From positions 9,852-73,851 of the forward strand of contig NZ_CAKZHY010000097.1 of assembly GCF_936928535.1 (NCBI RefSeq): a stretch of 64,000 nt of DNA, in the 5' to 3' direction. Position 1 is the first letter of the stretch. Every line of letters begins with the position of its first letter. Under the pieces are notes generated by a model. The model worked only from the letters and a program-made list of their open reading frames with translations, searched no databases and had not been told where the DNA came from. This DNA is from an uncultured Bradyrhizobium sp. (lineage in GTDB: Bacteria > Pseudomonadota > Alphaproteobacteria > Rhizobiales > Xanthobacteraceae). Made by a program: the position numbers and the translations under genes. Positions 7,293 to 63,317 of the stretch are shown here, piece by piece.

Positions 7293-7296
7293 AATA

Positions 7297-8852: not shown

Positions 8853-8969
8853 CCCTTCGAGGGCCGCTGAAGAAGCGGCCACCTCAGGGTGACGGCTACG
8901 GGGAAAGCGTCATCCTGAGGTGCGAGCCGTGCGGCGCGAAGCGGCGCATGGGGAGCCTCGAAGGATGAG
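8853..8969. repeat. Composite of short GC-rich hairpin repeats (family E)
   Basis: GGCCGC-tgaagaa-GCGGCC hairpin, then inverted repeat CCTCAGGGTGACG / CGTCATCCTGAGG, then a ...GCCTCGAAGGATGAG tail. Fills the gap between two minus-strand genes. Confidence 0.5.
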
Positions 8970-8999
8970 TAGCGGGCGCTACTCTGGCCGCGTAGACCA

Positions 9000-10133
9000 T
9001 CACTCCGCCACCAGCGCATTCATGTGCTCGACGGCTTCGGCAAACTCTTCCTTGAACTCCTGCACCACGGCGCCCGCCGATTTCACGCTGTCGATCAGGC
9101 CGACGCCCTGGCCGACGAAATAGCTGACGAGGTCGCGCGCCCTAGCGTTTCCGGCGGCAGCAGCCCGGTCAATCGCATTGAAGGCGTCGCGGCTGATGAT
9201 GCTTTGCAGCGGCATCGGCAGCGCGCCCGGACTTTCCGGCGCGCGGTCCCAGGCGTCGGTCCAGACCGAGCGAAGCTGCCGCGCCGGCTTGCCGGTGCGG
9301 CCTTTCGAGCGGATCGCATCGCGCGAGGAAGCCGCGATCATCTTCGCGCGAAAGATCTCGCTGGTTTCGGATTCGACGGTCGCCAGCCACACCGAGCCGG
9401 TCCAGGCGCCGGCTGCACCCATCGCCATGCAGGCCGCCATCTGCCGTCCCGTCATGATGCCACCGGCCGCCAGCACCGGCACGTCGCGGATGGGCTTGAT
9501 CGCCTTGATCACCTCCGGGACCAGCACCATGGTCGAAACCTCGCCGCAATGACCGCCGGCCTCGGTGCCCTGCACCACGAGAATGTCGACGCCGGCCGCG
9601 ACCTGGCGCAGCGCGTGCTCCTTGGCGCCGACGAGGGCGGCAACTGGCACGTTGTACTTCCTGCCCATCTCGATCATCGCTTTCGGCGGCACGCCGAGCG
9701 CATTGGCGATCAGCCGAATCGGATGATTGAACGAGACTCTTAGCAGTTCGAGCGCGGTCTCGGCGTCGAAGGGTTGCGGCTGGTGGTCGTCCACCTCTGA
9801 TGTCGCCAGCTCGATGTCGTATTTCTTCAGGAGATCTCGGGTGTATTTGTGGTGCTCCACCGGCACGCGCGCTTCCAGGCTCTTCCAGGTGACGTTCTTC
9901 TCGCCTGATGTGGAGATGTTTTCCGGAATCAGCACGTCGATGCCATAGGGCTTGCCGTCGACATGGTCGTCGATCCATTTCAGCTCGCGCTCGAGCGTGT
10001 CGGGCGTGTGCACGGTGGCACCAAGCACGCCGAAGCCGCCGGCGCGGCTCACGGCGGCAACGACGTCGCGGCAATGGCTGAAGGCGAGTAGCGGAAACTC
10101 GATGCCCAGCATGTCGCAAATCGGCGATTTCAT
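9000..10133 (-). CDS. Nitronate monooxygenase (NMO / 2-nitropropane dioxygenase family)
   Basis: Start moved to the internal ATG (MKSPICDMLGIEFPLLAFSH), computed as residue 45 of the track ORF. FMN TIM-barrel motifs LVVQGTEAGGHCGE and PVLAAGGIMTGRQMAA. Confidence 0.8.
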   Translation of the reverse strand: MKSPICDMLGIEFPLLAFSHCRDVVAAVSRAGGFGVLGATVHTPDTLERELKWIDDHVDGKPYGIDVLIPENISTSGEKNVTWKSLEARVPVEHHKYTRDLLKKYDIELATSEVDDHQPQPFDAETALELLRVSFNHPIRLIANALGVPPKAMIEMGRKYNVPVAALVGAKEHALRQVAAGVDILVVQGTEAGGHCGEVSTMVLVPEVIKAIKPIRDVPVLAAGGIMTGRQMAACMAMGAAGAWTGSVWLATVESETSEIFRAKMIAASSRDAIRSKGRTGKPARQLRSVWTDAWDRAPESPGALPMPLQSIISRDAFNAIDRAAAAGNARARDLVSYFVGQGVGLIDSVKSAGAVVQEFKEEFAEAVEHMNALVAE

Positions 10134-49470: not shown

Positions 49471-49861
49471 GGGCAGCCTCCACTTTCAGGGCGTCGTGCA
49501 TGTTGTTGCGCTTCCAGCTGGTGTCCTTGTCGTTGATCTGCATGTCGAACGACAAAGCGAATTTGCTGGCGGCGAAGACGGGATCGAGATGTCTCGAGAG
49601 TGCCTGAAAGACGTGCTCGCCGGCTTTCTGGCGGGTCGCGAGGTCGCGGCCTTCGCCGATGCGCAGCACCATGTCGAGGAAGCCGTAATCGTGCCTGTTA
49701 TCGGCGATCGCATAATGCTCGCACCTGATGGCGCGCACGCGGATGCCGCCGAGCGGGAAGATACCGGTTTCGACCGCCGCCTTGCGCACCACCTCGCAGA
49801 CCGCGCCGATGTCGAGGCGGCCATCGAGATTGGCCGAATATTCGATCGTGAAATGCGGCAT
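49463..49861 (-). CDS. hpaF: 5-carboxymethyl-2-hydroxymuconate isomerase
   Basis: MPHFTIEYSANL...TGIFPLGGIRVRA...HDYGFLDM.LRIGEGR is collinear with my recollection of E. coli HpaF/HpcD. Confidence 0.95.
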   Translation of the reverse strand: MPHFTIEYSANLDGRLDIGAVCEVVRKAAVETGIFPLGGIRVRAIRCEHYAIADNRHDYGFLDMVLRIGEGRDLATRQKAGEHVFQALSRHLDPVFAASKFALSFDMQINDKDTSWKRNNMHDALKVEAAHG

Positions 49862-49896
49862 GGCGGTTTCACTCCCTGTGTCGTCTTATTGCTGTC

Positions 49897-50703
49897 TTAA
49901 GCGAAGTAGCAGCTAACCGAGCCGTAGGCGCCATAATCGGCTTGAATTGTGTCGCCCTTGCGGGTCTCGATCGGACGGATGAAGGAGCCGGCGAGCACGA
50001 TTTGGCCGGGCTCGAGCGCAAGTCCCAGCGGCGCGATCTTGTTGGCGAGCCAGGCCACCGCGGTTGCGGGATGATTTAGCACGCCGGCGGCAAGGCCGGT
50101 CTCTTCCAACTGGCCGTTCCTGAAGCAGAGCGCACCGATCCAGCGCAAATCCGCATCTAACGGGCGGATCGGCCGTCCGCCGAGTACGATGCCGGCATTC
50201 GCCGCGTTGTCGGCGATGGTGTCGTAGATCTTTCGCGTGGCCTTGGTCGCGGGATCGACGCGCTCGATGCGTGTGTCCAGGATCTCCAGCGCCGGCACGA
50301 CGAAGTCGGTGGCATTGAGCACGTCGAATAGCGTGCAATCCGGCCCTTCGAGACGCTTGTTCATGACAAAGGCGAGCTCGGCCTCGACGCGCGTGGCGAT
50401 GAAGCGCTCGGGCGGAATGATCCCGCCATCGGCGAAGAACATGTCATCGAGCAGCACGCCGGAATCCGGCTCGTCGATGTTGAGCGCGCTCTGCATCGCT
50501 TTCGAGGTCAGGCCGATCTTGTGGCCTTTGACCATGCGTCCCTCGGCGATCTTGATGTCGACCCACGCCTTCTGAATCGCGTAGGCATCGGCGATGGTGA
50601 TCGCGGGGAAATCCTGCGAGAGCTGCCGGATCTGCACGCGGGTCTTCTCCGCCTGGTGCAGACGCCTCGCGCAAGCTTGGATATCGTCGTTGGAAAGCGC
50701 CAT
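49897..50703 (-). CDS. hpaH: 2-oxo-hepta-3-ene-1,7-dioate hydratase
   Basis: [28 protein letters not shown]...[13 protein letters not shown]...[11 protein letters not shown]...[16 protein letters not shown] is collinear with my recollection of E. coli HpaH/HpcG. Confidence 0.95.
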
Positions 50704-50734
50704 GGATGATCTACGTATCAGTGGTGCCCGAGAT

Positions 50735-50750
50735 ACTTAACATGTTAAGT
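50735..50750. promoter_or_regulatory. Perfect 16-bp palindrome ACTTAACATGTTAAGT in the hpaH/hpaR divergent region; candidate HpaR (MarR) operator
   Basis: Perfect dyad 32 nt upstream of the hpaH start codon and 76 nt upstream of the hpaR ORF. AT-rich relative to its surroundings. MarR-family dimers bind such dyads. Confidence 0.45.
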
Positions 50751-50825
50751 GAATGCGTCAAACAGATTCTGGCTTGCTGCACTGCAAACGTTTGTGGTCC
50801 GAACGGGCGGCCTTGAAAGGGCGAT

Positions 50826-51344
50826 ATGGCAAAGAGACCGGCTGACCCAACCAACGCAGCTGCACCCGCCGCCCGCCAGGTGCCGATGCGCGATTTCTCG
50901 CGCTCGCTGCCGATGTCGCTGCTGCGGGCACGCGAGGCGGTGATGCGGCAATTTCGCCCCAAGCTGCGCGAGCACGGTCTGACCGAGCAGCAATGGCGCA
51001 TCCTGCGCGCGCTCGCCGCCATCGAGGCCGCCGAGGTCACGGAACTCGCGCGCACCGCCTTTCTCCTGGGGCCAAGCCTGTCGCGCATCCTGCGCGATCT
51101 CGAGGCGCGCAATCTGATCGAGCGCAGGACGGCGAAGTCGGACCAGCGCCGCAGCATGGTCTCGATCTCGAAAGACGGTGTGAAGCTGATGGCCTCGGTC
51201 GCGCCGTCGTCGGAGGCGATCTATGCCGAGATCACGCAGCGCTTCGGCGCGCGCAAGCTTGGCGAGTTGCAGGAGATGCTTGGAGAGCTCGAGCAGAGCC
51301 TCGCAGGGCTCGGTGCCGGCGACGAGGCAAGTGCCGAGGAGTGA
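50826..51344 (+). CDS. hpaR: Homoprotocatechuate degradation operon regulator HpaR (MarR family)
   Basis: LLRAREAVMRQFRPKLREHGLTEQQWRILRAL resembles the E. coli HpaR N-terminus as I recall it. Winged-HTH follows. The true start may be the internal ATG near 50886. Confidence 0.85.
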   Translation: MAKRPADPTNAAAPAARQVPMRDFSRSLPMSLLRAREAVMRQFRPKLREHGLTEQQWRILRALAAIEAAEVTELARTAFLLGPSLSRILRDLEARNLIERRTAKSDQRRSMVSISKDGVKLMASVAPSSEAIYAEITQRFGARKLGELQEMLGELEQSLAGLGAGDEASAEE

Positions 51345-51472
51345 ACCCAGATATGCGCTTGGACGCAGCGAGAAACCATGGACATTGCTGCGTTTTTTGG
51401 CTCAAAGTGCCGCCCAAGCTGATCCGTCCACCGGCACCCGGAAGCGGGATCGCGCTGTCGCGGCGCGTCGTC

Positions 51473-52288
51473 ATGGCGACGAAGGCTCAAACAACAAAGA
51501 AGGAAGGCAACGTGGCGAACAAGGTCAAGGAAATCTGGAAGTCGGGCAAGGCCGTGGTCAACGCGTGGCTCGCTATTCCCTCCGGCTTCTCGGCTGAGAT
51601 GATCGCGCAATGCGGCTTCGACAGCGTCACCGTCGACATGCAGCACGGCGTGCAGGACTATCTGTCGATGGTGCAGTGCTTCCAGGCCATGGACAAGCAC
51701 CCTGTCACCCCGATGGTCCGCGTGCCCTGGAACGAGCCCGGCATCATCGGCAAGGTGCTCGACGGCGGCGCCTATGGTGTGATCTGCCCGATGGTCAACA
51801 CGCCGCAAGAGGCCAGGAACCTCGTTTCTTACTCGAAGTATCCGCCGAAAGGCGTCCGCTCCAACGGCCCGATCCGGGCAGGCATGTACGGCACGGCCGG
51901 CTCCTACCAGAAGACGGCCAACGATGACATCGTGCTGTTGCCGATGATGGAGACGAAGACTGCGGTCGAGAACATGGAAGCGATCCTCGACGTCGAAGGC
52001 CTCAACGGGGTCTATATCGGCCCGTCCGACCTCGGCTTCTCCTACGGCCTCGAGCCCAAGCTCGACCGGTCCGAGCCCGAGATCCTCGCGATCTACGAGA
52101 AGATCATCAAGGAATGCGACAAGCGTGGGCTCTTCCCCGGCATCCATTGCAGCGGCGCCGAAGGCGCTGCGCGCGCCATCAACATGGGCTTCAAGCTGGT
52201 GACGCTCTCGAACGAGGTCGGCATGATGACGACCTATGCCAAGATGCAGGTCAACGCCACCCGCAAGGAGTCCGGCGGCAAGGCCTAA
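51473..52288 (+). CDS. hpaI: HpcH/HpaI family aldolase (probable 4-hydroxy-2-oxoheptanedioate aldolase)
   Basis: ATG 51473; the track start 50993 is an out-of-frame overlap with hpaR. Has the HpaI-type N-terminus (VNAWLAIPSGFSAEMIAQCGFDSVTVDMQHG), although Q replaces the usual E of DxEH. Downstream of hpaR. Confidence 0.75.
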   Translation: MATKAQTTKKEGNVANKVKEIWKSGKAVVNAWLAIPSGFSAEMIAQCGFDSVTVDMQHGVQDYLSMVQCFQAMDKHPVTPMVRVPWNEPGIIGKVLDGGAYGVICPMVNTPQEARNLVSYSKYPPKGVRSNGPIRAGMYGTAGSYQKTANDDIVLLPMMETKTAVENMEAILDVEGLNGVYIGPSDLGFSYGLEPKLDRSEPEILAIYEKIIKECDKRGLFPGIHCSGAEGAARAINMGFKLVTLSNEVGMMTTYAKMQVNATRKESGGKA

Positions 52289-52303
52289 GTTTTCTCTCCT
52301 TTC

Positions 52304-52447
52304 CCTCTCCCCGTTCTTACGGGGAGAGGGTTAGGGTGAGGGGCCTCTCTCAACACGAATGAAACTCACGATCGAGCGCGCGGCTTGCCCCTCACCCGGC
52401 TCGCTTCGCGATCCGACCTCTCCCCGTAAGAACGGGGAGAGGTGAAG
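52304..52447. repeat. Inverted pair of family D hairpin repeats
   Basis: Left arm CCTCTCCCCGTTCTTACGGGGAGAGGGTTAGGGTGAGGGGC. Right arm GCCCCTCACCC...CCTCTCCCCGTAAGAACGGGGAGAGG. Each arm is itself a hairpin. Confidence 0.6.
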
Positions 52448-52469
52448 TAAGAGACCTAAGGAGACTTCC

Positions 52470-53993
52470 ATGACCATCAGCCCCGTCATCCGCCTGCACC
52501 CCGATGATGGCGTGCTGATCGCGCGCGCGAGCCTGCCGCCGGGAACGGTGGTGGCCGACGGCGTGACCACGGTCGAACGTATTCCCTCCGGCCACAAGGT
52601 TGCGATCAAGCCGATCGCCGTGGGCGAACCTGTCGTCCGCTACGGCCAGATCATCGGCTTTGCGACCCAGGCCATTGCGCCGGGCCAGCACGTACATGTC
52701 CAGAACATCGGCATGGGCGACTTCGCCAAGGACTACGCCTATTGCGCCGACGTCAAGCCGACGCCGAATTTCGATCTGCCGGCGACTTTCGAAGGCATCC
52801 GCCGTCCGGACGGCCGCGTCGCCACGCGCAACTATATCGGCATCCTCACCTCGGTGAATTGCAGCGCGCATGTCGCAAGCCTCGTCGCCGATGTCTTCAA
52901 GAAGAATCCCTTCACCGGCGACAATCCGCTGGCCGAGTTTTCCAATGTCGACGGTGTCGTTGCGCTGACGCACAAGACCGGCTGCGGCATGACGCAGAAC
53001 GAGCCGCTTGCGCTGCTCCGCCGCACCCTCGGCGGCTATGCGCGGCACGTCAATTTCTCCCATGTCATCGTGCTCGGCCTCGGCTGTGAGGTGAACCAGA
53101 TCGGCGGCCTGATGGAAGAGCAGAAGCTCGCCGGCCGCCTCCGCGCGATGGACATCCAGGAGGTCGGCGGCACCCGCAAGACGGTGGAAGCCGGCATTGC
53201 CTTTGTGCGCGAGGCGCTTGCCGACTCCAACAAGGTGAAGCGCGAGTCCGTGCCGGTGAGCGAGCTGACCGTGGCGCTGCAATGCGGCGGCTCGGATGGC
53301 TATTCCGGCGTGTCGGCCAATCCGGCCTTGGGCGCGGCCAGCGATCTCATCGTCCGCCACGGCGGGACCGTGATCCTGTCGGAGACGCCGGAGACCTACG
53401 GCGCCGAGCACCTGCTGACGCGCCGGGCCGTCAGCCGCGAGGTCGGCGAGAAGCTGGTCGACCTCATGCGCTGGTGGGACGAATACACGACGCGCGAAGG
53501 CGCAGAGATGAACGCCAATCCGAGTCCCGGCAACAAGGCCGGCGGCCTCACCACCATTCTGGAAAAGTCGCTCGGCGCGATGGCCAAGGCCGGCACCACC
53601 AATCTCGTCGAGGTGCTGCGCTACGCCGAGCCCGTCACCAAGAAGGGTTTTGTCTTCATGGACACGCCCGGCTACGACCCAGTCGCGGCCACGGGGCAGG
53701 TCGCCGGCGGCGCCAACCTCGTCTGCTTCACCACGGGCCGCGGCAGCGTGTTCGGCTGCAAGCCCGCGCCCTCTATCAAGCTCGCCACCAACACGCCCAT
53801 GTACAAGCGCATGGAAGAGGACATGGACGTCAATTGCGGCACCATCCTCGAAGGCGAGGAGAGCGTGCAGGAGTGCGGCCAGCGCATCTTCGATCTGATC
53901 CTGAAGACCGCCTCGGGCCAGCCGACCAAGAGCGAAAGCTTCGATTTCGGCGGCGCCGAGTTCGCACCTTGGGTGCTGGGCGCGACGATGTGA
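52470..53993 (+). CDS. UxaA family hydrolyase (altronate/galactarate dehydratase-like)
   Basis: N-terminal SAF domain (GTVVADGVTTVERIPSGHKVAIKPIAVGEPVVRYGQIIG) followed by an approximately 400-aa UxaA/GarD-type C-terminal domain. Confidence 0.8.
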   Translation: MTISPVIRLHPDDGVLIARASLPPGTVVADGVTTVERIPSGHKVAIKPIAVGEPVVRYGQIIGFATQAIAPGQHVHVQNIGMGDFAKDYAYCADVKPTPNFDLPATFEGIRRPDGRVATRNYIGILTSVNCSAHVASLVADVFKKNPFTGDNPLAEFSNVDGVVALTHKTGCGMTQNEPLALLRRTLGGYARHVNFSHVIVLGLGCEVNQIGGLMEEQKLAGRLRAMDIQEVGGTRKTVEAGIAFVREALADSNKVKRESVPVSELTVALQCGGSDGYSGVSANPALGAASDLIVRHGGTVILSETPETYGAEHLLTRRAVSREVGEKLVDLMRWWDEYTTREGAEMNANPSPGNKAGGLTTILEKSLGAMAKAGTTNLVEVLRYAEPVTKKGFVFMDTPGYDPVAATGQVAGGANLVCFTTGRGSVFGCKPAPSIKLATNTPMYKRMEEDMDVNCGTILEGEESVQECGQRIFDLILKTASGQPTKSESFDFGGAEFAPWVLGATM

Positions 53994-53996
53994 GAG

Positions 53997-54063
53997 GGCG
54001 ATTGGCGAATAGGGGTTAGCGAAGAGGGGAAGCCTTCGGCAATTCGCTACTCGCCATTCGCCC
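53997..54063. repeat. Imperfect inverted repeat (GGGCGATTGGCGAATAG ... CTACTCGCCATTCGCCC), possible terminator or REP-like element
   Basis: Arms of about 17 bp with mismatches, starting just after the dehydratase stop. Seen once in the window, so family status is unproven. Confidence 0.4.
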
Positions 54064-54153
54064 GTGCCGTAGGCACCCACTGCCCGTTGTTAATGCTTGA
54101 TCGAGGTCACCAGCAGTGTTCTGCTCAAAAAAGCTGCTGGAGCACCGCACCCC

Positions 54154-57100
54154 GTGTCGATCTACGTCGCATTACACCACGTCACGCACTACAAATACGA
54201 CCGCCCGATCGATCTGGGACCGCAGACTATTCGCCTGCGGCCGGCGCCGCATACGCGCACGCCAATCCTGAGCTATTCGCTCAAGGTCACGCCATCCAAT
54301 CACTTCGTGAACTGGCAGCAGGACCCGCAGGGCAACTGGCTTGCCCGCTATGTCTTTCCGGAGAAGACGACCGAACTGAAATTCGAGGTCGACTTCACGG
54401 CGCAGATGACCACGGTCAATCCGTTCGACTTCTTCGTCGAGCCTTACGCCGACAGCTTTCCGTTCGAATATCCTAAGGACTTGAAGACCGAGCTCGCGCC
54501 CTATCTCGAGACCATCAAGCCCGATCCGGCCTTCGCGAAATATCTGGCCTCGCTCCCGCGCGAGGCGCCGAACACCGTCAATTACCTGGTCGATCTCAAT
54601 CGCGAGCTCCAGAAGAAGATCAGCTACATCATCCGCATGGAGCCCGGCGTGCAGACGCCGGAGGAGACGCTGACCTCCTGCGCCGGCTCTTGCCGCGACT
54701 CCGCCTGGCTCCTGATCCAGACCTTCCGTCATCTCGGCCTCGCCGCGCGTTTCGTCTCCGGCTATCTGATCCAGATCCGCCCCGACATCGATCCGATCGA
54801 AGGGCCGCCCGAGGTCGAGAACGACTTCACGGATTTGCACGCCTGGGCCGAGGTCTATCTGCCGGGCGCGGGATGGATCGGGTTCGACGCGACGTCAGGC
54901 ATGCTCGCAGGCGAGGGGCACATCCCGGTCGCCGCCACGCCGCATTATCGCTCGGCCGCGCCGATCTCGGGCGGCGCAGGTTTCGCCGAGGTCGAGTTCG
55001 CCTTCGACATGAGCGTGAAGCGGATCCGCGAGGCGCCGCGCATCACAAAGCCGTTCTCGGACGAATCCTGGGGGCGGCTCAACGATCTCGGCGAGCAGGT
55101 CGACGGCGACCTCGCCGCGCAAGACGTGCGCCTCACCATGGGCGGCGAGCCGACCTTCGTCTCGGTCGATGATCTCGAAGCGGCGGAGTGGAATACGGAA
55201 GCCGTCGGCCCGACCAAGCGCGCGCTCGGCGACGACCTGATCCGCCGCCTGCGCAATCGCTTCGCGCCGGGCGGCCTTTTGCATTACGGCCAGGGCAAAT
55301 GGTATCCGGGCGAAAGCCTGCCGCGCTGGGCGTTCGGCCTCTACTGGCGCAAGGACGGCATGCCGATCTGGAAGAACGCCGACCTCATTGCAAAGATCGA
55401 GAATCCCAGGCGCGCCCACACCGAAGACGCCGAGGATTTCATGGAGGGCACGGCCGTGCGGCTCGGGCTCGATCCCGGCTACATCATTCCGGCCTATGAG
55501 GACACGGTCTACTGGCTCAAGAAGGAAGCCGAGCTTCCTGTCAACGTCGACCCGTCCGACTCCAAATTGTCCGATCCCGAGGCACGCGCGCGGATGGCGC
55601 GGGTGTTCAATCAGGGCCTCCGCGCGCCGCGCGGCTTCGTGTTGCCGGTGCAGCGCTGGAACGCGCCGCCGCGCTGGCGCAGCGAGCGCTGGCAACTCCG
55701 GCGCGGTCATCTGTTCCTGATGCCTGGGGATTCGCCGCTGGGTCTGCGCCTGCCGCTTGACTCGCTCGGCTATGTCCCGCCCAATCAATATCCTTACATC
55801 ATCGAGCGGGATCCGATGGAGGCCCGCGGCAAGCTGCCGGTGTTCAGCCTCCCCGCGCGCCCGGAATCGCCGCCACCGCGGATCGCGCCCGAGCAACTCA
55901 ACATGTCTGTCCCCGTCCGGACCGCGCTGTCGATCGAGGTCCGCGACGGCGTCATCTGCGCGTTCATGCCGCCGGTCGAGCGCATCGAGGATTATCTCGA
56001 AATGATCGCGGCGCTCGAAGCCACGGCCGAGGAGATGAAGCTCCAGGTCCATGTCGAGGGTTATCCGCCGCCATTCGATCCGCGCATCGAGGTCATCAAG
56101 GTGACGCCGGACCCAGGCGTCATCGAGGTCAACATCCAGCCGGCGCAGAGCTGGCGCGATGCGGTCGAGATTACCTCGGGTCTTTATGAGGACGCCGGCA
56201 AGGTCCGTCTCGGCGCTAACCGATTTCTGCTCGATGGCCGCCACACCGGCACTGGTGGTGGCAACCACGTCGTGATCGGCGGCTCCTCACCGCAGGATTC
56301 GCCGTTTCTGCGCCGGCCTGATCTCCTGAAGAGCCTCGTGCTCTACTGGCAGCGGCATCCGTCGCTGTCCTACTTCTTCTCCGGCCTGTTCATCGGCCCG
56401 ACCAGCCAGGCGCCCCGCATCGACGAAGCCCGCCACGACAGCATCTACGAGCTCGAGATCGCGCTCGCGCAGGTGCCGCCGCCGGGCTACCAGGTGCCGC
56501 TGTGGCTGGTCGACCGGCTGTTCCGGCACCAGCTCGTCGACATCACCGGCAACACCCATCGCTCCGAGATCTGTATCGACAAGCTCTATTCGCCCGACGG
56601 TCCCACGGGGCGTCTCGGCCTCGTCGAATTCCGCGCGCTCGAAATGCCGCCGGATCCGCGGATGTCGCTGGCGCAGCAGCTCTTGATCCGCGCGCTGATC
56701 GCAAAGTTCTGGCGCGAGCCGCAACAAGGCAAGTTCGTGCGGTGGGGCACGGCGCTGCATGATCGCTTCATGCTGCCGCATTTCATCTGGGAAGATTTTC
56801 AGGACGTGCTCTCCGAGCTGAAAAGCTCCGGCTATGCGTTCGAGCCGGAATGGTATCTGGCTCAGCTCGAATTCCGCTTCCCCGCCTTCGGCCGCGTTCA
56901 CCACGGCGGCGTGACGATGGAGCTGAGGCAGGCGCTGGAGCCCTGGCACGTCCTGGGCGAGGAGGGCTCGGCCGGCGGCACCGTGCGCTATGTCGATTCG
57001 TCCGTCGAACGGCTTCAGGTCAAGGCCGAGGGGTTCGTCGAAGGCCGTCACATCATTACCTGCAATGGTCGTCGCCTGCCGATGACCTCGACCGGCCGCT

Positions 57101-57426
57101 CGGCCGAAGCCGTGGCCGGCGTTCGCTTCAAGGCCTGGCAACCGGCCTCCGGCCTGCACCCGACCATCCCGGTCCATGCGCCGCTGACGTTTGACCTGAT
57201 CGACAGCTGGAACGGCCGCTCGCTGGGCGGTTGCGTCTATCACGTCGCCCATCCCGGCGGCCGTAACTACGAGACCAAGCCTGTCAACACCTACGAGGCC
57301 GAGGCGCGGCGGCTGGCGCGCTTCCAGGACCACGGTCATACGCCGGGGCCGATGCTGCCGCCGCCCGAGGAACGCACAAATGAATTCCCGCTGACCCTCG
57401 ACTTGCGGACCCCGCTCCTGCAATGA
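54154..57426 (+). CDS. Large transglutaminase-family protein (Bact_transglu_N + transglutaminase core + DUF2126-like C-terminal region)
   Basis: GTG 54154 ([18 protein letters not shown]) with GGAG upstream. Cys-His-Asp candidates are [18 protein letters not shown] and GFDATSG. About 800 further residues carry no motif I recognise. Confidence 0.85.
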
Positions 57427-57453
57427 GTATGATGGTGGGGCAGGGAGAGGCGC

Positions 57454-59976
57454 ATGGGCGAGGGCGCAGCCGAAGGCGACAGGACAGGTAAGGCGCAAGG
57501 ACAGCGCGAAGGCCAGCGCCGCCTTGCGCAATGGGTCCGCGACTATCGCCGCCTGCCTGGCATCCCCGACGAATTCTTAGGCGCCGACGGTGCTCCGCGC
57601 CCGGTCTGGAGCCGCTTCTTCGACGCCTTCGGCGCGCTCGCGCCCGACGAGGTCGAGCGGCGCTTCGGCATGGCCGACCGTCACCTGCGCGAGGCCGGCG
57701 TCACCTACCGCGCCCCCGGCGACAGCGCCGACCGGCCTTGGATGCTGAGCCATCTGCCGCTCTTGATCGATGAAGCCGACTGGAAGCAGCTCTGCGCCGG
57801 CATCACCCAGCGCGCCGAGCTCCTGGAGCTCGTGCTGCGCGACATCTATGGTGAGGGCAAGCTGGTTGCGGAGGGCGCGCTGCCTGCCGGCGCGATCGCC
57901 GGCAGTCCCGAATATCTCCGCCCCGTCTGCGGCGTACCGCCGCCGGGCGGCCGCTACCTCTCGCTCTATGCCGCCGATGTCGGCCGCGGCCCCGACGGCC
58001 GCTGGTGGGTGCTTGGCGATCGCACGCAGGCGCCGTCGGGCGCGGGCTATGCGCTGGAGAACCGCCTGGTGCTCTCGCGCGCCTTCTCCGATCTCTACAA
58101 GTCGATGAACGTGCCGCGCGTCGCGCCGTTCTTCGAGGCGTTTCGCGACAGTCTTCGCGCGCGGGCCGATCGCGACGAGCCGCGCATCGGCGTGCTGACG
58201 CCGGGCAGTTTCAGCGAGACCTATTTCGAGCACGCGACCTTGGCGCGCTATCTCGGTTTCCTCCTGGTCGAGGGCGACGATCTCGCCGTCAGCGACAATC
58301 GCATCCACATCCGCACTGTTGCTGGGCTGAAGCGGCTCGACGTGCTGTTGCGCCGCGTCGATTCCAATTCGCTCGATCCACTCGAGCTCGATGCCTCCTC
58401 GCATCTCGGCGTGCCCGGCCTGATCGACGTGCTGCGCAAGGACGGCGTCGTCGTCGCCAACATGCCGGGCTCGGGCGTCCTTGAGGCGCGGGCGCTGCTC
58501 GGCTTCCTGCCGGCGCTGAGCCGCCGCCTGCTCGGCGAAGAGCTGAAGATGCCGCATATCGCGACCTGGTGGTGCGGCCAGAAATCGGCGTGCGACGAGG
58601 TGTTGTCACGGCTCGACGAGGTCGCGATCGAAGGTGCTTACAGGCGCGGCGTGCCGGGCTTCGACAGTAACGGCCCGGTGCTGGCGAGTGAGCTCAATGC
58701 GGCGGGGCGTCAGCGCCTGATCGATGCCATCGGCGCGCGCGGCATGGATTATGTCGGCCAAGAGGTGGTGCGCCTCTCCACCATGCCGGTGTGGGAGCAG
58801 GGCCAGTTGACCCCGCGGCCCTTCGTGCTGCGCGTGTTTGCGGCCGCAACGCCCGATGGCTGGGCCATCATGCCCGGCGGCTTCTGCCGCATCGCCGAGC
58901 AGGCGGACGCGCGCGCGGTGTCGATGGGCGATGGTGCCCGTGCCGCCGACGTCTGGGTTGTCTCCGAGAAGAAGGTCGCGACCGCATCTCTGCTGCCGGC
59001 AACCGACAAGGTGCGCATCCGCCGCATTGCCGGCGTGCTGCCGAGCCGCGCCGCCGACAATCTGTTCTGGCTCGGCCGCTATCTCGAACGCGCCGAAGCG
59101 ACGCTGCGGCTGGTGCGCGCGCTGGGCTCGCCGAGCGGGCCCAACAAGGGCACCGCGGCCTCGCTGCAATCGGCCGAACGGATCCAGCGCCTGCTGGTGA
59201 CCTGGGGGGCGATCTCGCAGACCTCGCGCGCGGCACCGGGGCGCATCGTCGCCGAAGCCTTGCAAAGCGAGGCGCGTTTCGGCTCGGCGCTGTCGCTGGT
59301 GCGCTCGGCGCTGCGCACGGCCACCTCCTTGCGCGAACGGCTGTCGCCCGATGCCTGGCAGGTCATCACTGAGATGGCTGACCGTCTCTCCTACGAGGTC
59401 GAGGACGACGACAGCGTGCTGAGCGCAGCCGAGCTGACCCTGCAGGAGCTCGCGAGCTTCGCAGGGCTTGCGCAGGAGAACATGAACCGCGCCGCCGGCT
59501 GGCGCTTCCTCGATATCGGACGCCGCACCGAGCGCGCCATCAACACCACGCGCTTTGCGCGGCAGTTCGCCTATGACGAGGCCGGCGACGAGGATCTCGA
59601 CATCCTGCTGACGCTGGTGGATTCCCAGATCACCTACCGCTCGCGCTATCTGCTGGCCCCGATCCTGGCGCCGGTGCGCGACCTCGCGGTGCTCGACAGC
59701 TACAATCCGCGTTCGGTCGCGTTCCAGGTCGCGACCTTGAACGAGCATATCGCGGCGTTGCCAACCCTGAAGGAGCACGGCCTGATCGAAAAGCCGCAGC
59801 GGCTTGCGGTGGCGGTGCAGGCGATGCTGGCGACCGCGGAGGCTGAGAAGCTCGAGGTCAAGGCGCTGTTTACGCTGGAACAGGATCTGCTCGGCCTCGC
59901 CGAGGCGATCGGGCTGCACTACTTCCCGCACGGTCCGAATGCGAGCCGGCCGGAAAAGTTGACGGGGCTGGCGTGA
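57454..59976 (+). CDS. Circularly permuted type-2 ATP-grasp protein fused to an alpha-E domain
   Basis: 840 aa. N-terminal half has CP-ATP-grasp segments (VVANMPGSGVLEARALLGFLP, HIATWWCGQ). C-terminal half has the alpha-E hallmark NLFWLGRYLERAEATLRLVRA. Confidence 0.85.
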   Translation: MGEGAAEGDRTGKAQGQREGQRRLAQWVRDYRRLPGIPDEFLGADGAPRPVWSRFFDAFGALAPDEVERRFGMADRHLREAGVTYRAPGDSADRPWMLSHLPLLIDEADWKQLCAGITQRAELLELVLRDIYGEGKLVAEGALPAGAIAGSPEYLRPVCGVPPPGGRYLSLYAADVGRGPDGRWWVLGDRTQAPSGAGYALENRLVLSRAFSDLYKSMNVPRVAPFFEAFRDSLRARADRDEPRIGVLTPGSFSETYFEHATLARYLGFLLVEGDDLAVSDNRIHIRTVAGLKRLDVLLRRVDSNSLDPLELDASSHLGVPGLIDVLRKDGVVVANMPGSGVLEARALLGFLPALSRRLLGEELKMPHIATWWCGQKSACDEVLSRLDEVAIEGAYRRGVPGFDSNGPVLASELNAAGRQRLIDAIGARGMDYVGQEVVRLSTMPVWEQGQLTPRPFVLRVFAAATPDGWAIMPGGFCRIAEQADARAVSMGDGARAADVWVVSEKKVATASLLPATDKVRIRRIAGVLPSRAADNLFWLGRYLERAEATLRLVRALGSPSGPNKGTAASLQSAERIQRLLVTWGAISQTSRAAPGRIVAEALQSEARFGSALSLVRSALRTATSLRERLSPDAWQVITEMADRLSYEVEDDDSVLSAAELTLQELASFAGLAQENMNRAAGWRFLDIGRRTERAINTTRFARQFAYDEAGDEDLDILLTLVDSQITYRSRYLLAPILAPVRDLAVLDSYNPRSVAFQVATLNEHIAALPTLKEHGLIEKPQRLAVAVQAMLATAEAEKLEVKALFTLEQDLLGLAEAIGLHYFPHGPNASRPEKLTGLA

Positions 59977-60851
59977 TCTACGACATCCGGCACGTTACCA
60001 CCTACGAATATGAGAGCCCGGTCAGCTTCGCCCGCTGCACATTGCGGCTCGAGCCGAACAGCGGTCATGGTCAGGAGCTGATCTCGCACAAGGTCGAGAT
60101 CCGCCCGCGCCCGTCCGAGCGGAACGTCCGCCGCGACTTCTTCGGCACGCTGACCGAGAGCATCGTGATCGAGGCCGCGCACCGCAATTTGCGCATCGAC
60201 TCGCGCTCGCGTGTTTCAGTCGATCGCAAGCCGCCGGCGCGCGATGCCGCGAGTCCGTCCTGGGAGAGCATCCGCGACGTTGCCTTCGAGGCCACGAGCC
60301 TCGGGCCGTCCTCGCCGGTCGGCTACGTCTTTGCAAGCCCGCTGGTGCCTGTGCTGCGTCCCGTCAGCGCCTATGCCGCCGAGAGCTTCAGGCCCGAGAC
60401 CGGTATCCTCGCCGGCGCGGTTGATCTCATGCACCGCATCCGCGCCGAGTTTCGTTACGACCCCAAGGCCACCGCGATCTCGACGCCGCTCGACGAGGTG
60501 TTCGACAAGCGCCATGGCGTCTGCCAGGATTTTGCTCACGTCATGATCGCCGGCCTGCGCGGGCTCGGCCTGCCTGCCGCCTATGTCAGCGGTTACTTGC
60601 GCACCATTCCGCCGCTGGGCCAGGCGCGCTTGCAAGGTGCGGACGCAACCCATGCCTGGGTATCGCTCTGGTGCGGGGCAGAGCTCGGCTGGATTGATTT
60701 CGATCCGACCAACGATCTCCTGGTCGCCAACGATCACATCGTGCTGGCGATGGGCCGCGACTTCTCCGATGTGTCCCCGGTCGACGGTATCATCGTCGGC
60801 TCGCCGAAGCAGAAGCTCGGCGTCGCCGTGGACGTGCTGCTGGTGGAGTGA
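59973..60851 (+). CDS. Transglutaminase family protein (Bact_transglu_N + transglutaminase core)
   Basis: GTG 59973 overlaps the upstream stop (GTGA). Start MIYDIRHVTTYEYESPVSF. Triad candidates GVCQDFAH, THAWVSLW and DFDPTN. Confidence 0.85.
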   Translation: MIYDIRHVTTYEYESPVSFARCTLRLEPNSGHGQELISHKVEIRPRPSERNVRRDFFGTLTESIVIEAAHRNLRIDSRSRVSVDRKPPARDAASPSWESIRDVAFEATSLGPSSPVGYVFASPLVPVLRPVSAYAAESFRPETGILAGAVDLMHRIRAEFRYDPKATAISTPLDEVFDKRHGVCQDFAHVMIAGLRGLGLPAAYVSGYLRTIPPLGQARLQGADATHAWVSLWCGAELGWIDFDPTNDLLVANDHIVLAMGRDFSDVSPVDGIIVGSPKQKLGVAVDVLLVE

Positions 60852-61011
60852 CCGTCGTTTCACCGACCCCCGGATGTGACCGAATGCGTCCAGCCGCGGG
60901 AAATTTGTTTCACCGTATTTCCTTGACGTGCCGAACGGCGGTTCATTAACACGCTGTTAACGCTACCCCGCGACACATTGGCTCACTTTCAACGCTGCTG
61001 AAGCCGAACCG

Positions 61012-61686
61012 ATGGTCGAGGGACTTGCATTGCTGACAGAGGCCGCCGAGCAGGTGGCGCTGTCGCGGATACTGCGAAATTTCAGGCCTGATCTGGCGAT
61101 CTGGGCCGTGTCCGGGATCGAAGAGCTACGCAGCATCGATGCCTCGGCCCTCCGCAACACCAGGCTGGTCGCGTTCGCCTCCGGCGTCATTGTGCCGGCC
61201 GACCTGCTCGCACGCTTTGGCCACGGTGCCTACAATTTCCATCCGGGGCCACCGAACTATCCGGGCTGGGCTCCCGCCCATTTCGCGCTCTATGACCGCG
61301 CGGAGACATTCGGCGTGACCTTTCACGCCATGGCGGAAAAAGTCGATACCGGCGCGATCCTCGACGTGGTGTCGTTTCCGATTCCGCCGGGCAGCACGCT
61401 CATGCGCCTCGGCGAGCTCGGCTATGCGCATCTGCTGCAGATGTTCGAGGTGTGGGCCGAACCGCTGGCGCAGGAGTCCTCGCTGATGCCGCGCTGCGCG
61501 CAGTCCTGGAGCGGTCGCACCAACACGCGTCGTAGCTACAAGCAAGCTTGCGACATTCCGCTCGACATCTCCAGCGATGAGCTGTGGCGCCGCATGCGTG
61601 CCTTCGGCGGCAATCATTACGGCATCGCGCCGGCGATCAATCTGCATGGTGTCACCTTCAGGGCGTCACCTCCGGAGTCTTCATGA
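61012..61686 (+). CDS. Formyltransferase-like protein (Formyl_trans_N domain only)
   Basis: YNFHPGPPNYPGWAPAHFALYDRAETFGVTFHAMAEKVDTGAILD parallels the Fmt/PurN motif N-x-H-x-S-L-L-P...D-x-G, so Asn, His and Asp are retained. No Fmt C-terminal domain. Confidence 0.7.
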   Translation: MVEGLALLTEAAEQVALSRILRNFRPDLAIWAVSGIEELRSIDASALRNTRLVAFASGVIVPADLLARFGHGAYNFHPGPPNYPGWAPAHFALYDRAETFGVTFHAMAEKVDTGAILDVVSFPIPPGSTLMRLGELGYAHLLQMFEVWAEPLAQESSLMPRCAQSWSGRTNTRRSYKQACDIPLDISSDELWRRMRAFGGNHYGIAPAINLHGVTFRASPPESS

Positions 61687-63317
61687 CGTCACCATCGATG
61701 GCCCTTGCGCTGCCTGCCGCCGGCGCGCCAAGCATCGCCGATCTGCTGCACACGGGGCGCGAGCACTACCGGCGTGGTGAGATCAGGCCCGCGATCGCGG
61801 TATTTCAGGCCGGGCTCGCGCTTGCGGCCACGGCGTCGATGGGTGTCGTCGTCGATGGCATTGCCGACCTCCACGCAGCGCTCGCCAATGCGTTCATGCT
61901 CTGCGACGACATCGGTTCTGCGGCCGAGAACTACAAGGCGGCCTTGCGCATCGCGCCGCATCTCGTCGCCTGCTGGTGCAATCTCGGCATCGTCCATCAG
62001 CGCAGCGGCATGATGCAGGATGCGATTTCGCTTTACCTGGAGGCGCTCAGGCGCAATCCGGGCCATCGGCCGTCGCGCACGAATCTGGTCCAGGCATTGA
62101 TGGCGACGCGGCAGTTCGCGATCGCAAAGACCTTGCTGCTGGAATTGATCGAGGAGACGCCCGACGACGCCGATCTCCACAGCCAGCTTGGCAAGGTCTG
62201 CTTCGAGCTCGGCGAGACCGGGGAGGCGGTAGCGCAGTTCGAGCGTGCCGTGGCACTCGCGCCGGGGCAGGCCGAGAATTTCTACTGGGTCGGTGCGATC
62301 CGTCAGGCGCGCGGCGAAAAGGACGAGGCCGAGGCCGCCTACGCCCGCGCCGCGAAAGTACATCCCATCCTGCGCAGGCAAGCCAACCAATCGCCGCCTG
62401 CGTTTCGAGCGCTGGCGCTGTTTGCCCCTTTCTTCGGCAACACGCCGGTCGAATTCCTCTTCAAGGATTGCGCCTACCAGACCAGCATCCTGTCGCTCCT
62501 GCCCGGTCGCCAGCCTGATATCGCGCTGTTGGCGCAGGAGGCCGATGTGGTCGTCAATCTCGTCTCCGATGCCGACCAGGGCGCGGAGGTGCTTCCTCTT
62601 GCCATGGCCATCGCACGAAGCCTCGGCAAGCCTGTCGTCAACGATCCCGCAAAGATCCAGAACACGACGCGCGACGCTACGGCTCTGGCCCTCGCCGATC
62701 TCGACGGCTGCCGCGTTCCGCGCACGGTCCGCATCGCGGCCGGCGAGGGGCTACCCGATGGCCTCGCGCTCGCCTTTCCGCTGCTGGCGCGCCCGGCCGG
62801 TATGCACGGTGGCGATCTCTTCGAGAAGCTCGAGGATGTCGCCGCGCTGATCTCGTTCCTTGCGGCACATGCGGCGCATGACCGCTACGTGATCGACTAT
62901 ATCGACTATCGTTCCGCAGACGGCTACTTCCGCAAGTACAGGTTCTTGTTCGTGGGCGAGGAAATTCTACCCTATCATCTGGCCATTGGCGAGGACTGGA
63001 AGCTCCATCGCGATGCGACGGAGATGGGCAGTCACGCCTGGATGCAGGCCGAGGAGGAGCACTTCCTGCAGGCGCCCGAGCAGGTCTTTAGCCCGCGGCA
63101 CATCGCGGCGTTGCGAGTCATTCGCGATCGCATCGGTCTCGACTATTTCGGCATCGATTGCGGATTGGACCTTGACGGCTGTCTGGTCGTGTTCGAGGTC
63201 AACGCCTCCATGTTGGTGCACGACCAGAATCCGGAATTTCCCTACAAGGACCCGTATATCCACGGGATCAAGGTCGCGTTCGACGCGATGCTTGCGCGCC
63301 TCGCGCGAGGGAATTGA
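61683..63317 (+). CDS. TPR-repeat protein with a C-terminal ATP-grasp (RimK/GshB-like) domain
   Basis: ATG 61683 overlaps the formyltransferase stop (ATGA), with GGAG upstream. About 250 aa of TPR repeats, then ATP-grasp elements FPLLARPAGMHGGDLF, YRKYRFLFVGEEILPYHLAI and LVVFEVNAS (E-x-N). Confidence 0.75.
   Translation: MTSPSMALALPAAGAPSIADLLHTGREHYRRGEIRPAIAVFQAGLALAATASMGVVVDGIADLHAALANAFMLCDDIGSAAENYKAALRIAPHLVACWCNLGIVHQRSGMMQDAISLYLEALRRNPGHRPSRTNLVQALMATRQFAIAKTLLLELIEETPDDADLHSQLGKVCFELGETGEAVAQFERAVALAPGQAENFYWVGAIRQARGEKDEAEAAYARAAKVHPILRRQANQSPPAFRALALFAPFFGNTPVEFLFKDCAYQTSILSLLPGRQPDIALLAQEADVVVNLVSDADQGAEVLPLAMAIARSLGKPVVNDPAKIQNTTRDATALALADLDGCRVPRTVRIAAGEGLPDGLALAFPLLARPAGMHGGDLFEKLEDVAALISFLAAHAAHDRYVIDYIDYRSADGYFRKYRFLFVGEEILPYHLAIGEDWKLHRDATEMGSHAWMQAEEEHFLQAPEQVFSPRHIAALRVIRDRIGLDYFGIDCGLDLDGCLVVFEVNASMLVHDQNPEFPYKDPYIHGIKVAFDAMLARLARGN

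Follow-up and report, generated by a model that had tools for sequence, protein, structure and literature searches.

Gene organization at the locus

In the 64-kb stretch of Bradyrhizobium DNA analyzed here (the window), which matches B. guangzhouense at 97%, three genes follow each other on the forward strand. According to the ORF calls, gene 1 (54154-57426, +) encodes a protein of 1090 aa from a GTG start, gene 2 (57454-59976, +) a protein of 840 aa from an ATG start, and gene 3 (59973-60851, +) a protein of 292 aa from a GTG start. The open reading frame of gene 1 already opens at a TTG at position 54097; its start was set at GTG 54154, because the resulting 1090 aa fit the 1089-1090 aa found in most database homologues and the Pfam domain Bact_transglu_N then begins at residue 6. 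Genes 1 and 2 are spaced by 27 nt, and the Shine-Dalgarno sequence GGGAGAGG precedes the ATG of gene 2. The GTG start of gene 3 and the stop codon of gene 2 share the overlap GTGA (a junction of -4 nt), by which gene 3 is translationally coupled to cytoplasmic partners. The co-directional order, the coordinates, the gap and the overlap had all been reported in a preliminary description of this DNA and are the same in the ORF calls, and all motifs quoted there, including NLFWLGRYLERAE, GVCQDFAH, THAWVSLW and DFDPTN, were found again. Neither transmembrane segments nor signal peptides were predicted from the sequences of the three proteins, and none of them matched the anti-phage defence models of PADLOC.

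According to Pfam, the flanking genes are sugar-acid catabolism genes including a galactarate/altronate dehydratase upstream and a formyltransferase-like gene and a TPR gene downstream. A strong nested hairpin (53996..54063, +) is located directly 3' of the stop codon of the dehydratase gene at 53993. It has a predicted folding energy of -41.4 kcal/mol (z = -3.83; 0 of 200 shuffled sequences fold equally well) and occurs once within the window. It probably acts as a terminator or insulator between the sugar-acid genes and the three-gene module, hence gene 1 would head its own unit. A sigma-70-like promoter was not detected in the region 53800-61200. Genes 1 to 3 form a real, discrete and tightly packed module, probably a co-transcribed operon.

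Conservation and distribution of the module

The preliminary description had suggested an analysis of gene neighbourhoods, and this revealed that 64 of 72 informative loci from Proteobacteria, Acidobacteriota and Nitrospirales have gene 1, fused gene 2 and gene 3 in this order on one strand. Because order and strand recur in so many loci of several phyla, the arrangement is far beyond chance. Genes 2 and 3 overlap by 4 nt in 24 of the 64 loci, and in 94% of the 64 their junction measures at most 60 nt. The parts are not strictly interdependent, since gene 1 occurs without genes 2 and 3 in 8 of the 72 loci and the catalytic Cys is missing from 4 of 25 gene 1 homologues. Beyond the three genes, no conserved neighbour was found among 80 loci, of which 15 had the commonest flanking family; conserved genes for transporters, oxidoreductases or other metabolic functions were absent beside the module. 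The family is very abundant, with 3,079 representative clusters (50% identity, E<=1e-30) and at least 599 matches in contigs representing one genome per species, and the module is also kept in free-living soil and water bacteria.

The Bradyrhizobium locus is an ordinary member of a widespread family. It shares domain architecture and neighbourhood with the Rv2566-type family, whose description in PMC2588565 covers the very fusion seen in gene 1, and is an orthologous member of it that differs in nothing substantive, in agreement with the earlier assignment to the system predicted by Iyer, Aravind and colleagues (PMC2588565, PMC3495828). This family is documented by Iyer, Burroughs and Aravind 2008, by Iyer et al. 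2009 and by the Pfam entries DUF2126, CP_ATPgrasp and Alpha-E. These sources are computational predictions only, so membership confers no experimentally known function. In line with the preliminary description, no substrate, product or phenotype for this gene family was found in the literature. The description of the system as genuinely uncharacterised holds in the experimental sense; as a computational prediction it is known from the literature and Pfam since 2008-2009, and it is very common rather than new.

Gene 1 combines a transglutaminase-like domain with a predicted ligase

The HMM searches that had been proposed for CP_ATPgrasp_2, Alpha-E, Bact_transglu_N, Transglut_core and DUF2126 returned every named domain in Pfam. 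The N-terminal part of gene 1 (residues 1-275; 54154..54978, +) consists of Bact_transglu_N (PF08379, 3e-25) and a transglutaminase-like, papain-fold core (Transglut_core, PF01841, 4e-15), both above the gathering cut-offs, and matches 3ISR and 6G49 in sequence comparisons. Its identity to gene 3 is 25%. The triad Cys180-His229-Asp245 is intact, as had been claimed, and is retained among 25 diverse homologues in 21 (Cys), 24 (His) and 25 (Asp) cases. The domain is predicted to be a thiol amidase, peptidase or transamidase.

The following about 800 residues, in which the preliminary description could name no motif, are in fact the DUF2126 domain (residues 276-1090; 54979..57426, +), which was matched with 1334 bits over profile positions 3-826 of 826 (PF09899) and is labelled by Pfam itself as a putative amidoligase. 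Its confident AlphaFold2 model (pLDDT 86.8, pTM 0.87) shows an 815-aa domain with an extra C-terminal beta-rich region. When the model was compared with the PDB by Foldseek, all 50 matches listed were GS, gamma-glutamyl-amide synthetases or gamma-GCS, among them GmaS (gamma-glutamylmethylamide synthetase) and 1-naphthylamine GS; the match is weak, with a best E of 2.8e-3 at a probability of 1.0, TMt up to 0.34 and an rmsd of about 10 Å. Sequence profiles of DUF2126 reached no GS or GCS2 structure, and hhalign gave no match to YbdK. Thirty columns of the domain are invariant, including R257, H460, R480, E483, E530, D606, E654, D673 and R678 (domain numbering). Judging from this weak structural match, DUF2126 is predicted to be a glutamine-synthetase-fold, ATP-dependent carboxylate-amine ligase. 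It is the better ligase candidate of the locus, which the preliminary description had not recognised. Since the listed matches of the model are GS-fold ligases only, gene 1 would represent a fusion of a thiol peptidase with a ligase. The profile-based GS-fold assignment made for the Rv2566-type fusion by Iyer, Burroughs and Aravind 2008 agrees with the model (PMC2588565). A biochemical report on ATP-dependent amide-bond formation by the DUF2126 family was not found in the literature.

Gene 3 is a second transglutaminase-like protein

Gene 3 contains the same two domains as the N-terminal part of gene 1 (Bact_transglu_N 3e-24, Transglut_core 2e-17, both above the gathering cut-offs). Its triad Cys184-His227-Asp244 is likewise intact, as the preliminary description had stated, with a conservation of 95% or more across 62 syntenic orthologues. 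In alignments, the motifs around these three residues match those of TgpA of Pseudomonas aeruginosa (6G49) and of 3ISR of Cytophaga, which have the same catalytic core. TgpA is a membrane protein carrying this domain in the periplasm, whereas gene 3 and the N-terminus of gene 1 are predicted to be soluble and cytoplasmic and possess the Bact_transglu_N extension. Gene 3 is predicted to be a cytoplasmic thiol peptidase or amidase.

A different view of such proteins, namely as general proteases that are secreted or located in the cell wall and attack host proteins, follows from the only biochemical claim found for such a system, the report that Rv2569c of Mycobacterium tuberculosis is a "serine protease" cleaving E-cadherin (PMC11081392). 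For the transglutaminase-fold proteins of the present locus this is highly improbable. AEBSF and PMSF stopped the activity of Rv2569c, a putative relative of gene 3, whereas E-64 and NEM did not (PMC11081392). This pattern fits poorly to a papain-like Cys-His-Asp fold and could stem from a contaminating protease. Moreover, gene 3 lacks both a signal peptide and a transmembrane segment and is coupled to cytoplasmic partners, and the occurrence of the module in free-living bacteria also speaks against host proteins as targets.

Gene 2 fuses a degenerate ATP-grasp to an Alpha-E domain

The N-terminal half of gene 2 (residues 1 to ~510; 57454..58983, +) has a circularly permuted (CP) ATP-grasp fold. 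It was matched by CP_ATPgrasp_2 (PF14403, 1e-138) and CP_ATPgrasp_1 (PF04174, 7e-86), and it resembles 3N6X in sequence (1e-70) as well as in structure (E 2e-26, TMt 0.77). The structure search also found trypanothione synthetase, YjfC and eukaryotic glutathione synthetases. The preliminary description had regarded gene 2 as a CP ATP-grasp amidoligase fused to Alpha-E, of which the two domains, their fusion and the fold were verified; the amidoligase assignment was not, because the phosphate-binding elements are lost. In ATP-grasp enzymes a glycine-rich loop contacts the phosphates of ATP together with two conserved residues that are Lys or otherwise basic (PMC2034487). The corresponding element VVK-x4-SGG-YGM of the standalone proteins reads AIEGAYRRGVPGFDSNGPV in gene 2 (AIE...RGVPGFDSNGPV), ADDK is changed to LEAR and TKDTW to AADVW, such that all three lysine sites are replaced in the gene 2 of this window. 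Across 69 fused orthologues these positions are variable, and some orthologues keep the strand lysine and TKDTW. From 180 columns that are invariant in a reference set of four standalone sequences, gene 2 keeps 49. The CP_ATPgrasp_1 profile is matched in full by standalone paralogues with 460-504 bits and by gene 2 with 289 bits over positions 1-304 of 332.

These substitutions make it probable that the ATP-grasp half of gene 2 is a non-catalytic binding or regulatory module and not a working ligase. It could alternatively be assumed that two ATP-dependent ligases of the operon are functional, i.e. that the ATP-grasp of gene 2, possibly besides DUF2126, builds or attaches a peptide that is processed by the transglutaminase-fold peptidases. 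In addition to the strong profile matches and the confirmed fold, this assumption can draw on the putative Mg/acyl-phosphate motif D189...E202-N203-R204, which is kept in gene 2 and in at least 90% of the fused orthologues, and on the retained pair R300-R301. The conservation of this motif together with the strong conservation of gene 2 makes a divergent but active enzyme possible, and Pi is released from ATP by a standalone homologue that is encoded in the Anbu operon of Yersinia (PMC6376114). Nevertheless, two working ligases appear clearly unlikely to us, given the lost or variable lysines and glycine-rich loop and the small share of retained columns. Reportedly, the Pfam text for PF04174 describes inactive forms as often being N-terminally fused to Alpha-E. 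Furthermore, no activity has been reported for Rv2567, the fused homologue of mycobacteria; the single assay tried, which covered GABA-trehalose synthesis only, was negative.

The C-terminal half of gene 2 (residues 529-840; 59038..59976, +) is an all-alpha Alpha-E domain matched over profile positions 1-294 of 294 (PF04168, 1e-64), and residues 531 to 839 of the model are all helices. Two GRxxER motifs (R542/E545/R546 and R690/E693/R694) show no variation among 29 orthologues, and in a set of 69 their conservation is 95% or higher. A structure search against the PDB gave no significant match (best E 0.08). Of 68 loci, 64 have Alpha-E and the ATP-grasp joined in one protein. Alpha-E is a candidate for an adaptor or substrate-binding part of the system.

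A predicted system for amide-bond formation and reversal

Taken together, we estimate a probability of about 0.5 that the three proteins of the operon make up a self-contained system in the cytoplasm, which forms amide bonds and also reverses or transfers them. The DUF2126 domain of gene 1, plausibly the sole active ligase of the operon, would activate a carboxylate as acyl-phosphate at the expense of ATP and then couple it to an amine, giving an amide bond of the isopeptide or gamma-glutamyl type. The transglutaminase-fold domain of gene 1 and gene 3, both with papain-like Cys-His-Asp sets, would hydrolyse, trim or transamidate this bond, and gene 2 with its degenerate ATP-grasp and Alpha-E would serve as a substrate-binding or regulatory adaptor instead of a second ligase. 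Transglutaminase-fold enzymes can be cross-linkers instead of hydrolases, which counts against the reversal role in this scheme.

By analogy, the operon logic resembles the ligase-plus-reversal pairs of glutathionylspermidine synthetase/amidase, PuuA/PuuD and PafA/Dop. The Gss protein of E. coli unites in one polypeptide a papain-like thiol amidase and an ATP-dependent amide ligase making the bond that the amidase cleaves. Gene 1 is similar to Gss/trypanothione synthetase in joining a papain-like thiol domain to a predicted amide ligase; however, Gss combines an ATP-grasp-type ligase with a CHAP amidase, whereas at the present locus a predicted GS-fold ligase is fused to a transglutaminase-fold thiol domain and the ATP-grasp is separate and degenerate. 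PafA/Dop, which form and reverse an isopeptide bond, belong to the GS-fold carboxylate-amine ligase superfamily, as DUF2126 does by prediction, and the Rv2566 family came from the same profile searches (PMC2588565). There the reversal enzyme is the GS-fold paralogue Dop, while the one predicted here has a thiol transglutaminase fold.

Two rival proposals are more specific. The first is protein tagging akin to pupylation or tubulin polyglutamylation, in which the ligase tags targets, possibly Alpha-E itself or clients recruited by it, the transglutaminase-fold enzymes de-tag them, and the products may be passed on to Anbu, a proteasome-like particle encoded by the paralogous operon. The removal of ligase-attached peptide tags by the TGL domains is a published prediction (PMC3495828, PMC2588565), PafA and Dop are examples of the GS fold with proteins as substrates, and an 815-aa ligase domain with a beta-rich extension exceeds the needs of a small-molecule ligase. 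In addition, standalone CP-ATP-grasp and Alpha-E genes directly adjoin the module in two loci (L075, L077), with secondary matches in L076 and L078. On the other hand, a Pup-like small ORF was found neither within nor beside the operon with its junctions of 27 nt and -4 nt, proteasome or ATPase genes do not occur near it, PafA/Dop are absent from the 50 structural matches listed, where small-molecule ligases (GS, GmaS, 1-naphthylamine GS) were nearest, and stable complexes between Anbu-operon proteins were not detected (PMC6376114). We regard protein tagging as rather unlikely.

The comparison with the Anbu operon bears on the same proposal. It comprises a standalone CP-ATP-grasp, Alpha-E, a transglutaminase-like protein and the Ntn-hydrolase Anbu, so that CP-ATP-grasp, Alpha-E and Bact_transglu_N/TGase core, three of the four domain families of this operon, are common to both, and operon and module are adjacent in some genomes (L075, L077). 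Unlike the Anbu operon, the present locus has ATP-grasp and Alpha-E fused, the ATP-grasp degenerate and a predicted GS-fold DUF2126 added. A gene for Anbu (Ntn-hydrolase, proteasome beta-like) is absent from this locus and its flanks within the window, a further point against the tagging proposal. Nor did this family appear in the flanking genes conserved across the 80 loci.

The second proposal is a small-molecule pathway modelled on PuuA, GmaS or glutathionylspermidine synthetase, in which gene 1 would gamma-glutamylate or amidate a free amine, polyamine or amino acid and the thiol domains would hydrolyse the conjugate, for the purpose of nitrogen assimilation, storage, detoxification or redox buffering. 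The occurrence of gamma-glutamylmethylamide synthetase, 1-naphthylamine GS and gamma-GCS among the listed Foldseek matches and the Gss-like fusion of thiol amidase and ligase are consistent with it. However, the lack of a conserved metabolic gene beside the module in the 80 loci is not in favour of such a pathway, and a simple conjugate cycle would seem to need less than a large adaptor and two separate peptidase-like proteins, so that we consider it doubtful, too. Associations of related operons and domains with nitrogen also fit here: nitrogen limitation induces the Anbu operon of Pseudomonas putida (PMC6376114, PMC5666114), and marine metagenomes show co-variation of these domains with domains of urea metabolism (PMC3597751). 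For the preferred scheme of amide-bond formation and reversal, the paralogous Anbu-type operons likewise give weak hints to a role in nitrogen economy.

Genomic organization of the three-gene module

The module occupies positions 54154-60851 of the window on the plus strand. Gene 1 (54154-57426) encodes a protein of 1090 amino acids when translated from the GTG codon at 54154; the open reading frame itself opens at 54097, and the length obtained from the GTG corresponds to that of most database homologues. It is followed on the same strand by gene 2 (57454-59976, 840 amino acids) and gene 3 (59973-60851, 292 amino acids). The 27 nt between genes 1 and 2 contain a ribosome-binding site (GGGAGAGG), and genes 2 and 3 share the start/stop overlap GTGA. 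Hence, inspection of the open reading frames and junctions bears out the co-directional layout and the coordinates of the preliminary description, and all peptide motifs quoted there are present. The best homologues of gene 1 are Bradyrhizobium proteins, with the closest one found in B. guangzhouense (97%).

Upstream of the module lies a sugar-acid catabolism cluster (47932-53993), which comprises an aldehyde dehydrogenase (47932-49470, minus strand), a weak FAA-hydrolase-like ORF (49897-50703, minus strand), an HpcH/HpaI-type aldolase with a long N-terminal extension (50993-52288, plus strand) and, as the last gene before the module, a galactarate/altronate dehydratase (52470-53993, plus strand). 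This cluster has no relation to the module, and such a neighbourhood is not kept at other loci. Between the dehydratase stop codon and gene 1 are 160 nt, which hold a very stable nested hairpin directly after the stop codon (53996-54063, -41.4 kcal/mol, z -3.83). It has no T-run, is present in one copy in the window, and probably terminates transcription of the sugar-acid genes or insulates the module from them. On the downstream side, another 160 nt separate gene 3 from a formyltransferase-like ORF, which is followed by a TPR protein (61012-63317 for both). The three genes are thus set off on both sides, by the spacer with its stable hairpin and by the downstream spacer, and therefore represent a discrete unit. 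The formyltransferase-like ORF (224 amino acids) matches only the C-terminal part of Formyl_trans_N (positions 89-165 of 181) and overlaps the start of the TPR-repeat ORF (61584-63317, 577 amino acids) by approximately 100 nt, so that the start of one of the two ORFs has probably been misassigned.

A scan of positions 53800-61200 found no sigma-70 promoter, and no convincing sigma-54 element of the GG-N10-GC type was seen by eye upstream of the operon; terminator-like hits within genes were disregarded, because they are not intergenic. Neither an Anbu gene nor a Pup-like small ORF is present in the flanks within the window or in the junctions. Hydrophobic segments and signal peptides are absent from all three proteins, which argues for a cytoplasmic system.

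Distribution and synteny

The gene 1 family is large: clustering at 50% identity gives 12,769 clusters with a threshold of E<=1e-3 and 3,079 when the threshold is tightened to E<=1e-30. A scan using one genome per species yielded at least 599 confirmed relatives, of which the best 80 were compared in their genomic context; these loci come from Alpha-, Beta-, Gamma- and Deltaproteobacteria, Bryobacterales/Acidobacteriota and Nitrospirales. The order and strand of the three genes are kept in 64 of the 72 loci with sufficient downstream sequence, in line with the conserved multi-gene neighbourhood that had been proposed. The ATP-grasp and Alpha-E domains form a single ORF in 64/68 loci, the median distance from gene 1 to gene 2 is 6 nt, and the junction of genes 2 and 3 does not exceed 60 nt in 94% of cases, with a 4-nt overlap in 24/64 loci. 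No fourth conserved gene was detected in the flanks of the 80 loci, the commonest flanking family being an ABC transporter (15/80). The kept synteny and the absence of any flanking family from more than 15 loci indicate that exactly three genes make up the conserved functional unit. In the remaining 8 of the 72 informative loci (L010, L013, L014, L017, L021, L035, L043 and L059), gene 1 has neither gene 2 nor gene 3 beside it, hence, the ligase fusion can apparently act alone or with partners encoded elsewhere.

In 8/80 loci, a gene for Peptidase_Mx, a putative Zn metallopeptidase, with a zinc ribbon adjoins gene 1, mostly divergently upstream (L005, L009, L019, L042, L056, L059, L061 and L071; for example, 190-1725 in L061 and 8749-9897 in L042). 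It is a possible accessory peptidase; no such gene occurs in the flanks of the module in the window. Homologues of gene 1 were also found in 201 plasmid records of PLSDB, which for the most part are megaplasmids or chromids from Agrobacterium, Rhizobium, Ralstonia, Burkholderia and Azospirillum; for many of them, the PLSDB table lists no gene in the region.

DUF2126 as ligase candidate

All domains named in the preliminary description were matched by Pfam profiles far over the gathering thresholds. The DUF2126 match in gene 1 extends end to end with 1334 bits, and approximately 30 positions of the domain are invariant and rich in E, D, R and H. For residues 276-1090, AlphaFold2 gave a confident model (pLDDT 86.8, pTM 0.87) based on 30 diverse sequences. 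When this model was compared with the PDB using Foldseek, all 50 matches listed were carboxylate-amine ligases, among them glutamine synthetases (GS), gamma-glutamylmethylamide synthetase, 1-naphthylamine GS and a bifunctional gamma-GCS/GS; the match probability reached 1.0, yet the E-values were weak (best 2.8e-3) and the TM-scores low. The GS-fold result agrees with the assignment of the Rv2566 family by Iyer, Burroughs and Aravind in 2008 (PMC2588565). A profile of 25 diverse gene 1 homologues searched against all PDB sequences at E<=10 retrieved matches to the transglutaminase part (3ISR, 6G49) and none to DUF2126, and no signal was obtained when hhalign was used to compare the DUF2126 alignment with E. 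coli YbdK (GCS2; probability 0.1). An internal duplication of DUF2126 is likewise unsupported, because hhalign between its thirds matched only the deliberately overlapping ends. Going by the structural model, DUF2126 rather than the ATP-grasp is the candidate for the active ligase of the operon.

Gene 2 as probable pseudo-enzyme

Gene 2 matches CP_ATPgrasp_2, CP_ATPgrasp_1 and Alpha-E. Its N-terminal half has the circularly permuted ATP-grasp fold, with the standalone CP-ATP-grasp structure 3N6X as best structural match (E 2e-26, TMt 0.77), followed by eukaryotic-type glutathione synthetases, nematode GS-like effectors, YjfC and trypanothione synthetase. The Alpha-E domain is all-helical with two invariant GRxxER motifs, and no PDB structure matches it significantly. 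Four standalone proteins, 3N6X and those encoded beside the module in the loci L075, L077 and L078, served as reference, and 49 of the 180 columns invariant among them are kept in 69 fused proteins. The losses are non-random and comprise the strand lysine and glycine-rich loop (VVK-x4-SGG-YGM), the ADDK lysine and the TKDTW lysine. ATP-grasp modules contact the ATP phosphates through two conserved lysine/basic residues and a glycine-rich loop (Balaji and Aravind, PMC2034487). Because the losses fall on such elements, the ATP-grasp of gene 2 is probably non-catalytic, or at least non-canonical, and its proposed function as amidoligase is not supported. The Mg/acyl-phosphate motif is kept (D189, E202-N203-R204). 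Gene 2 likely represents a pseudo-enzyme adaptor. According to the Pfam annotation, inactive ATP-grasp versions are reportedly often fused to Alpha-E, which fits gene 2.

Transglutaminase-fold domains

Bact_transglu_N and Transglut_core were matched in both gene 1 and gene 3. As judged from the alignments, both domains have intact catalytic triads: in gene 1, C180, H229 and D245 are found in 21/25, 24/25 and 25/25 diverse homologues, respectively, and in gene 3, C184, H227 and D244 are at least 95% conserved among 62 syntenic orthologues, with catalytic motifs that line up with TgpA (6G49) and 3ISR. The intact triads noted in the preliminary description are thus borne out. In four gene 1 homologues of alignment A1 (P0145, P0161, P0170 and P0184), the catalytic Cys is replaced by Pro, Ala or Asp; all four keep the Asp and three keep the His, which is Ile in P0184. 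The thiol domain of this divergent, Cys-less subgroup is probably inactive and restricted to binding.

The sole biochemical claim concerns Rv2569c, which has been described as a cell-wall "serine protease" cleaving E-cadherin (PMC11081392). This explanation was rejected, because an activity sensitive to AEBSF/PMSF and insensitive to E-64/NEM ill suits a Cys-His-Asp fold. A cell-wall location also ill suits gene 3 of the window, which is cytoplasmic and translationally coupled, and Rv2569c is only a presumed orthologue of gene 3.

Proposed mechanism

The best-supported reading, to which we give a probability of about 0.5, combines a ligase with a fused thiol amidase in gene 1, a second thiol enzyme encoded by gene 3, and gene 2. 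The GS-fold domain of gene 1 would form an amide bond through an acyl-phosphate, and the papain-like domain fused to it would hydrolyse or transfer that bond. Gene 3 would provide a second thiol peptidase or amidase, and gene 2 would act as adaptor or regulator. The same design is found in glutathionylspermidine synthetase/amidase, PuuA/PuuD and PafA/Dop, although the folds differ. Regarding the substrate, a protein tag has been predicted (PMC3495828), which we regard as unlikely. A small amine is suggested by the nearest structural matches and appears similarly doubtful. Even less probable is a third bacterial protein-tagging system beside pupylation and the bacterial ubiquitin-like systems, in which the GS-fold ligase of gene 1 would add an amino acid or short peptide tag, for example gamma-glutamyl or polyglutamate, to targets recruited by the pseudo-ATP-grasp/Alpha-E protein, the two transglutaminase-fold enzymes would edit or remove the tag, and the output would feed turnover by the Anbu particle or proteolysis under nitrogen starvation. 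A defence system was rejected, because PADLOC gave no match for any of the three proteins; NCBIfam gave none either.

Published knowledge and significance

The observation reported in the preliminary description is confirmed and its interpretation partly supported. The module is real and conserved, and it is uncharacterised experimentally: no published function was found in the literature searched, including under the name DUF2126. As a computational prediction, however, it dates back to 2008-2009, and it is annotated in Pfam. According to a paper from 2024 on ML2678, the M. leprae homologue, the function of ML2678 has not been studied experimentally; this gene for a transglutaminase-fold and DUF2126 protein is still annotated as coding despite massive gene decay. 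In a 2026 preprint, Rv2567 and Rv2411c were expressed solely to test them for GABA-trehalose synthesis, with a negative result for both. In a GWAS on nodule competitiveness in S. meliloti, a regulatory region close to a COG2308 gene was flagged.

The Bradyrhizobium locus of the window is a routine orthologue, which offers nothing beyond other family members. The module, which has thousands of family clusters and is found in rhizobia, pseudomonads, Ralstonia, Burkholderia and mycobacteria, ranks with the more widely distributed multi-protein systems of bacteria without a known function. If it were solved, four Pfam families (DUF2126, the fused CP_ATPgrasp, Alpha-E and Bact_transglu_N) would gain a function, and the paralogous Anbu operon, the place of which in proteasome evolution has been under debate since 2008, would probably become clearer as well.

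Relation to the Anbu-type module

In the Anbu operon, the standalone ATP-grasp releases Pi from ATP, the sole activity shown, and no substrate or complexes were found (PMC6376114). The P. putida Anbu operon is induced by nitrogen limitation (PMC6376114, PMC5666114), and in marine metagenomes the domain families of the module vary together with urea-metabolism domains (PMC3597751). These findings from related systems hint that the module might have a role in nitrogen economy.

In a few genomes, standalone CP-ATP-grasp and Alpha-E genes directly adjoin the three-gene module, and the occasional adjacency of these paralogues links it to the Anbu-type module. In L075 the pair (6820-9413, plus strand) and the module form five co-directional genes, and in L077 the pair (7351-10023, minus strand) is divergent from gene 1. 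The adjoining standalone CP-ATP-grasp is apparently of the active type. Secondary standalone matches were found in L076 (58-648) and L078 (866-2275), and in L077 a Sir2-family gene (6181-7095, minus strand) lies beside the standalone pair.
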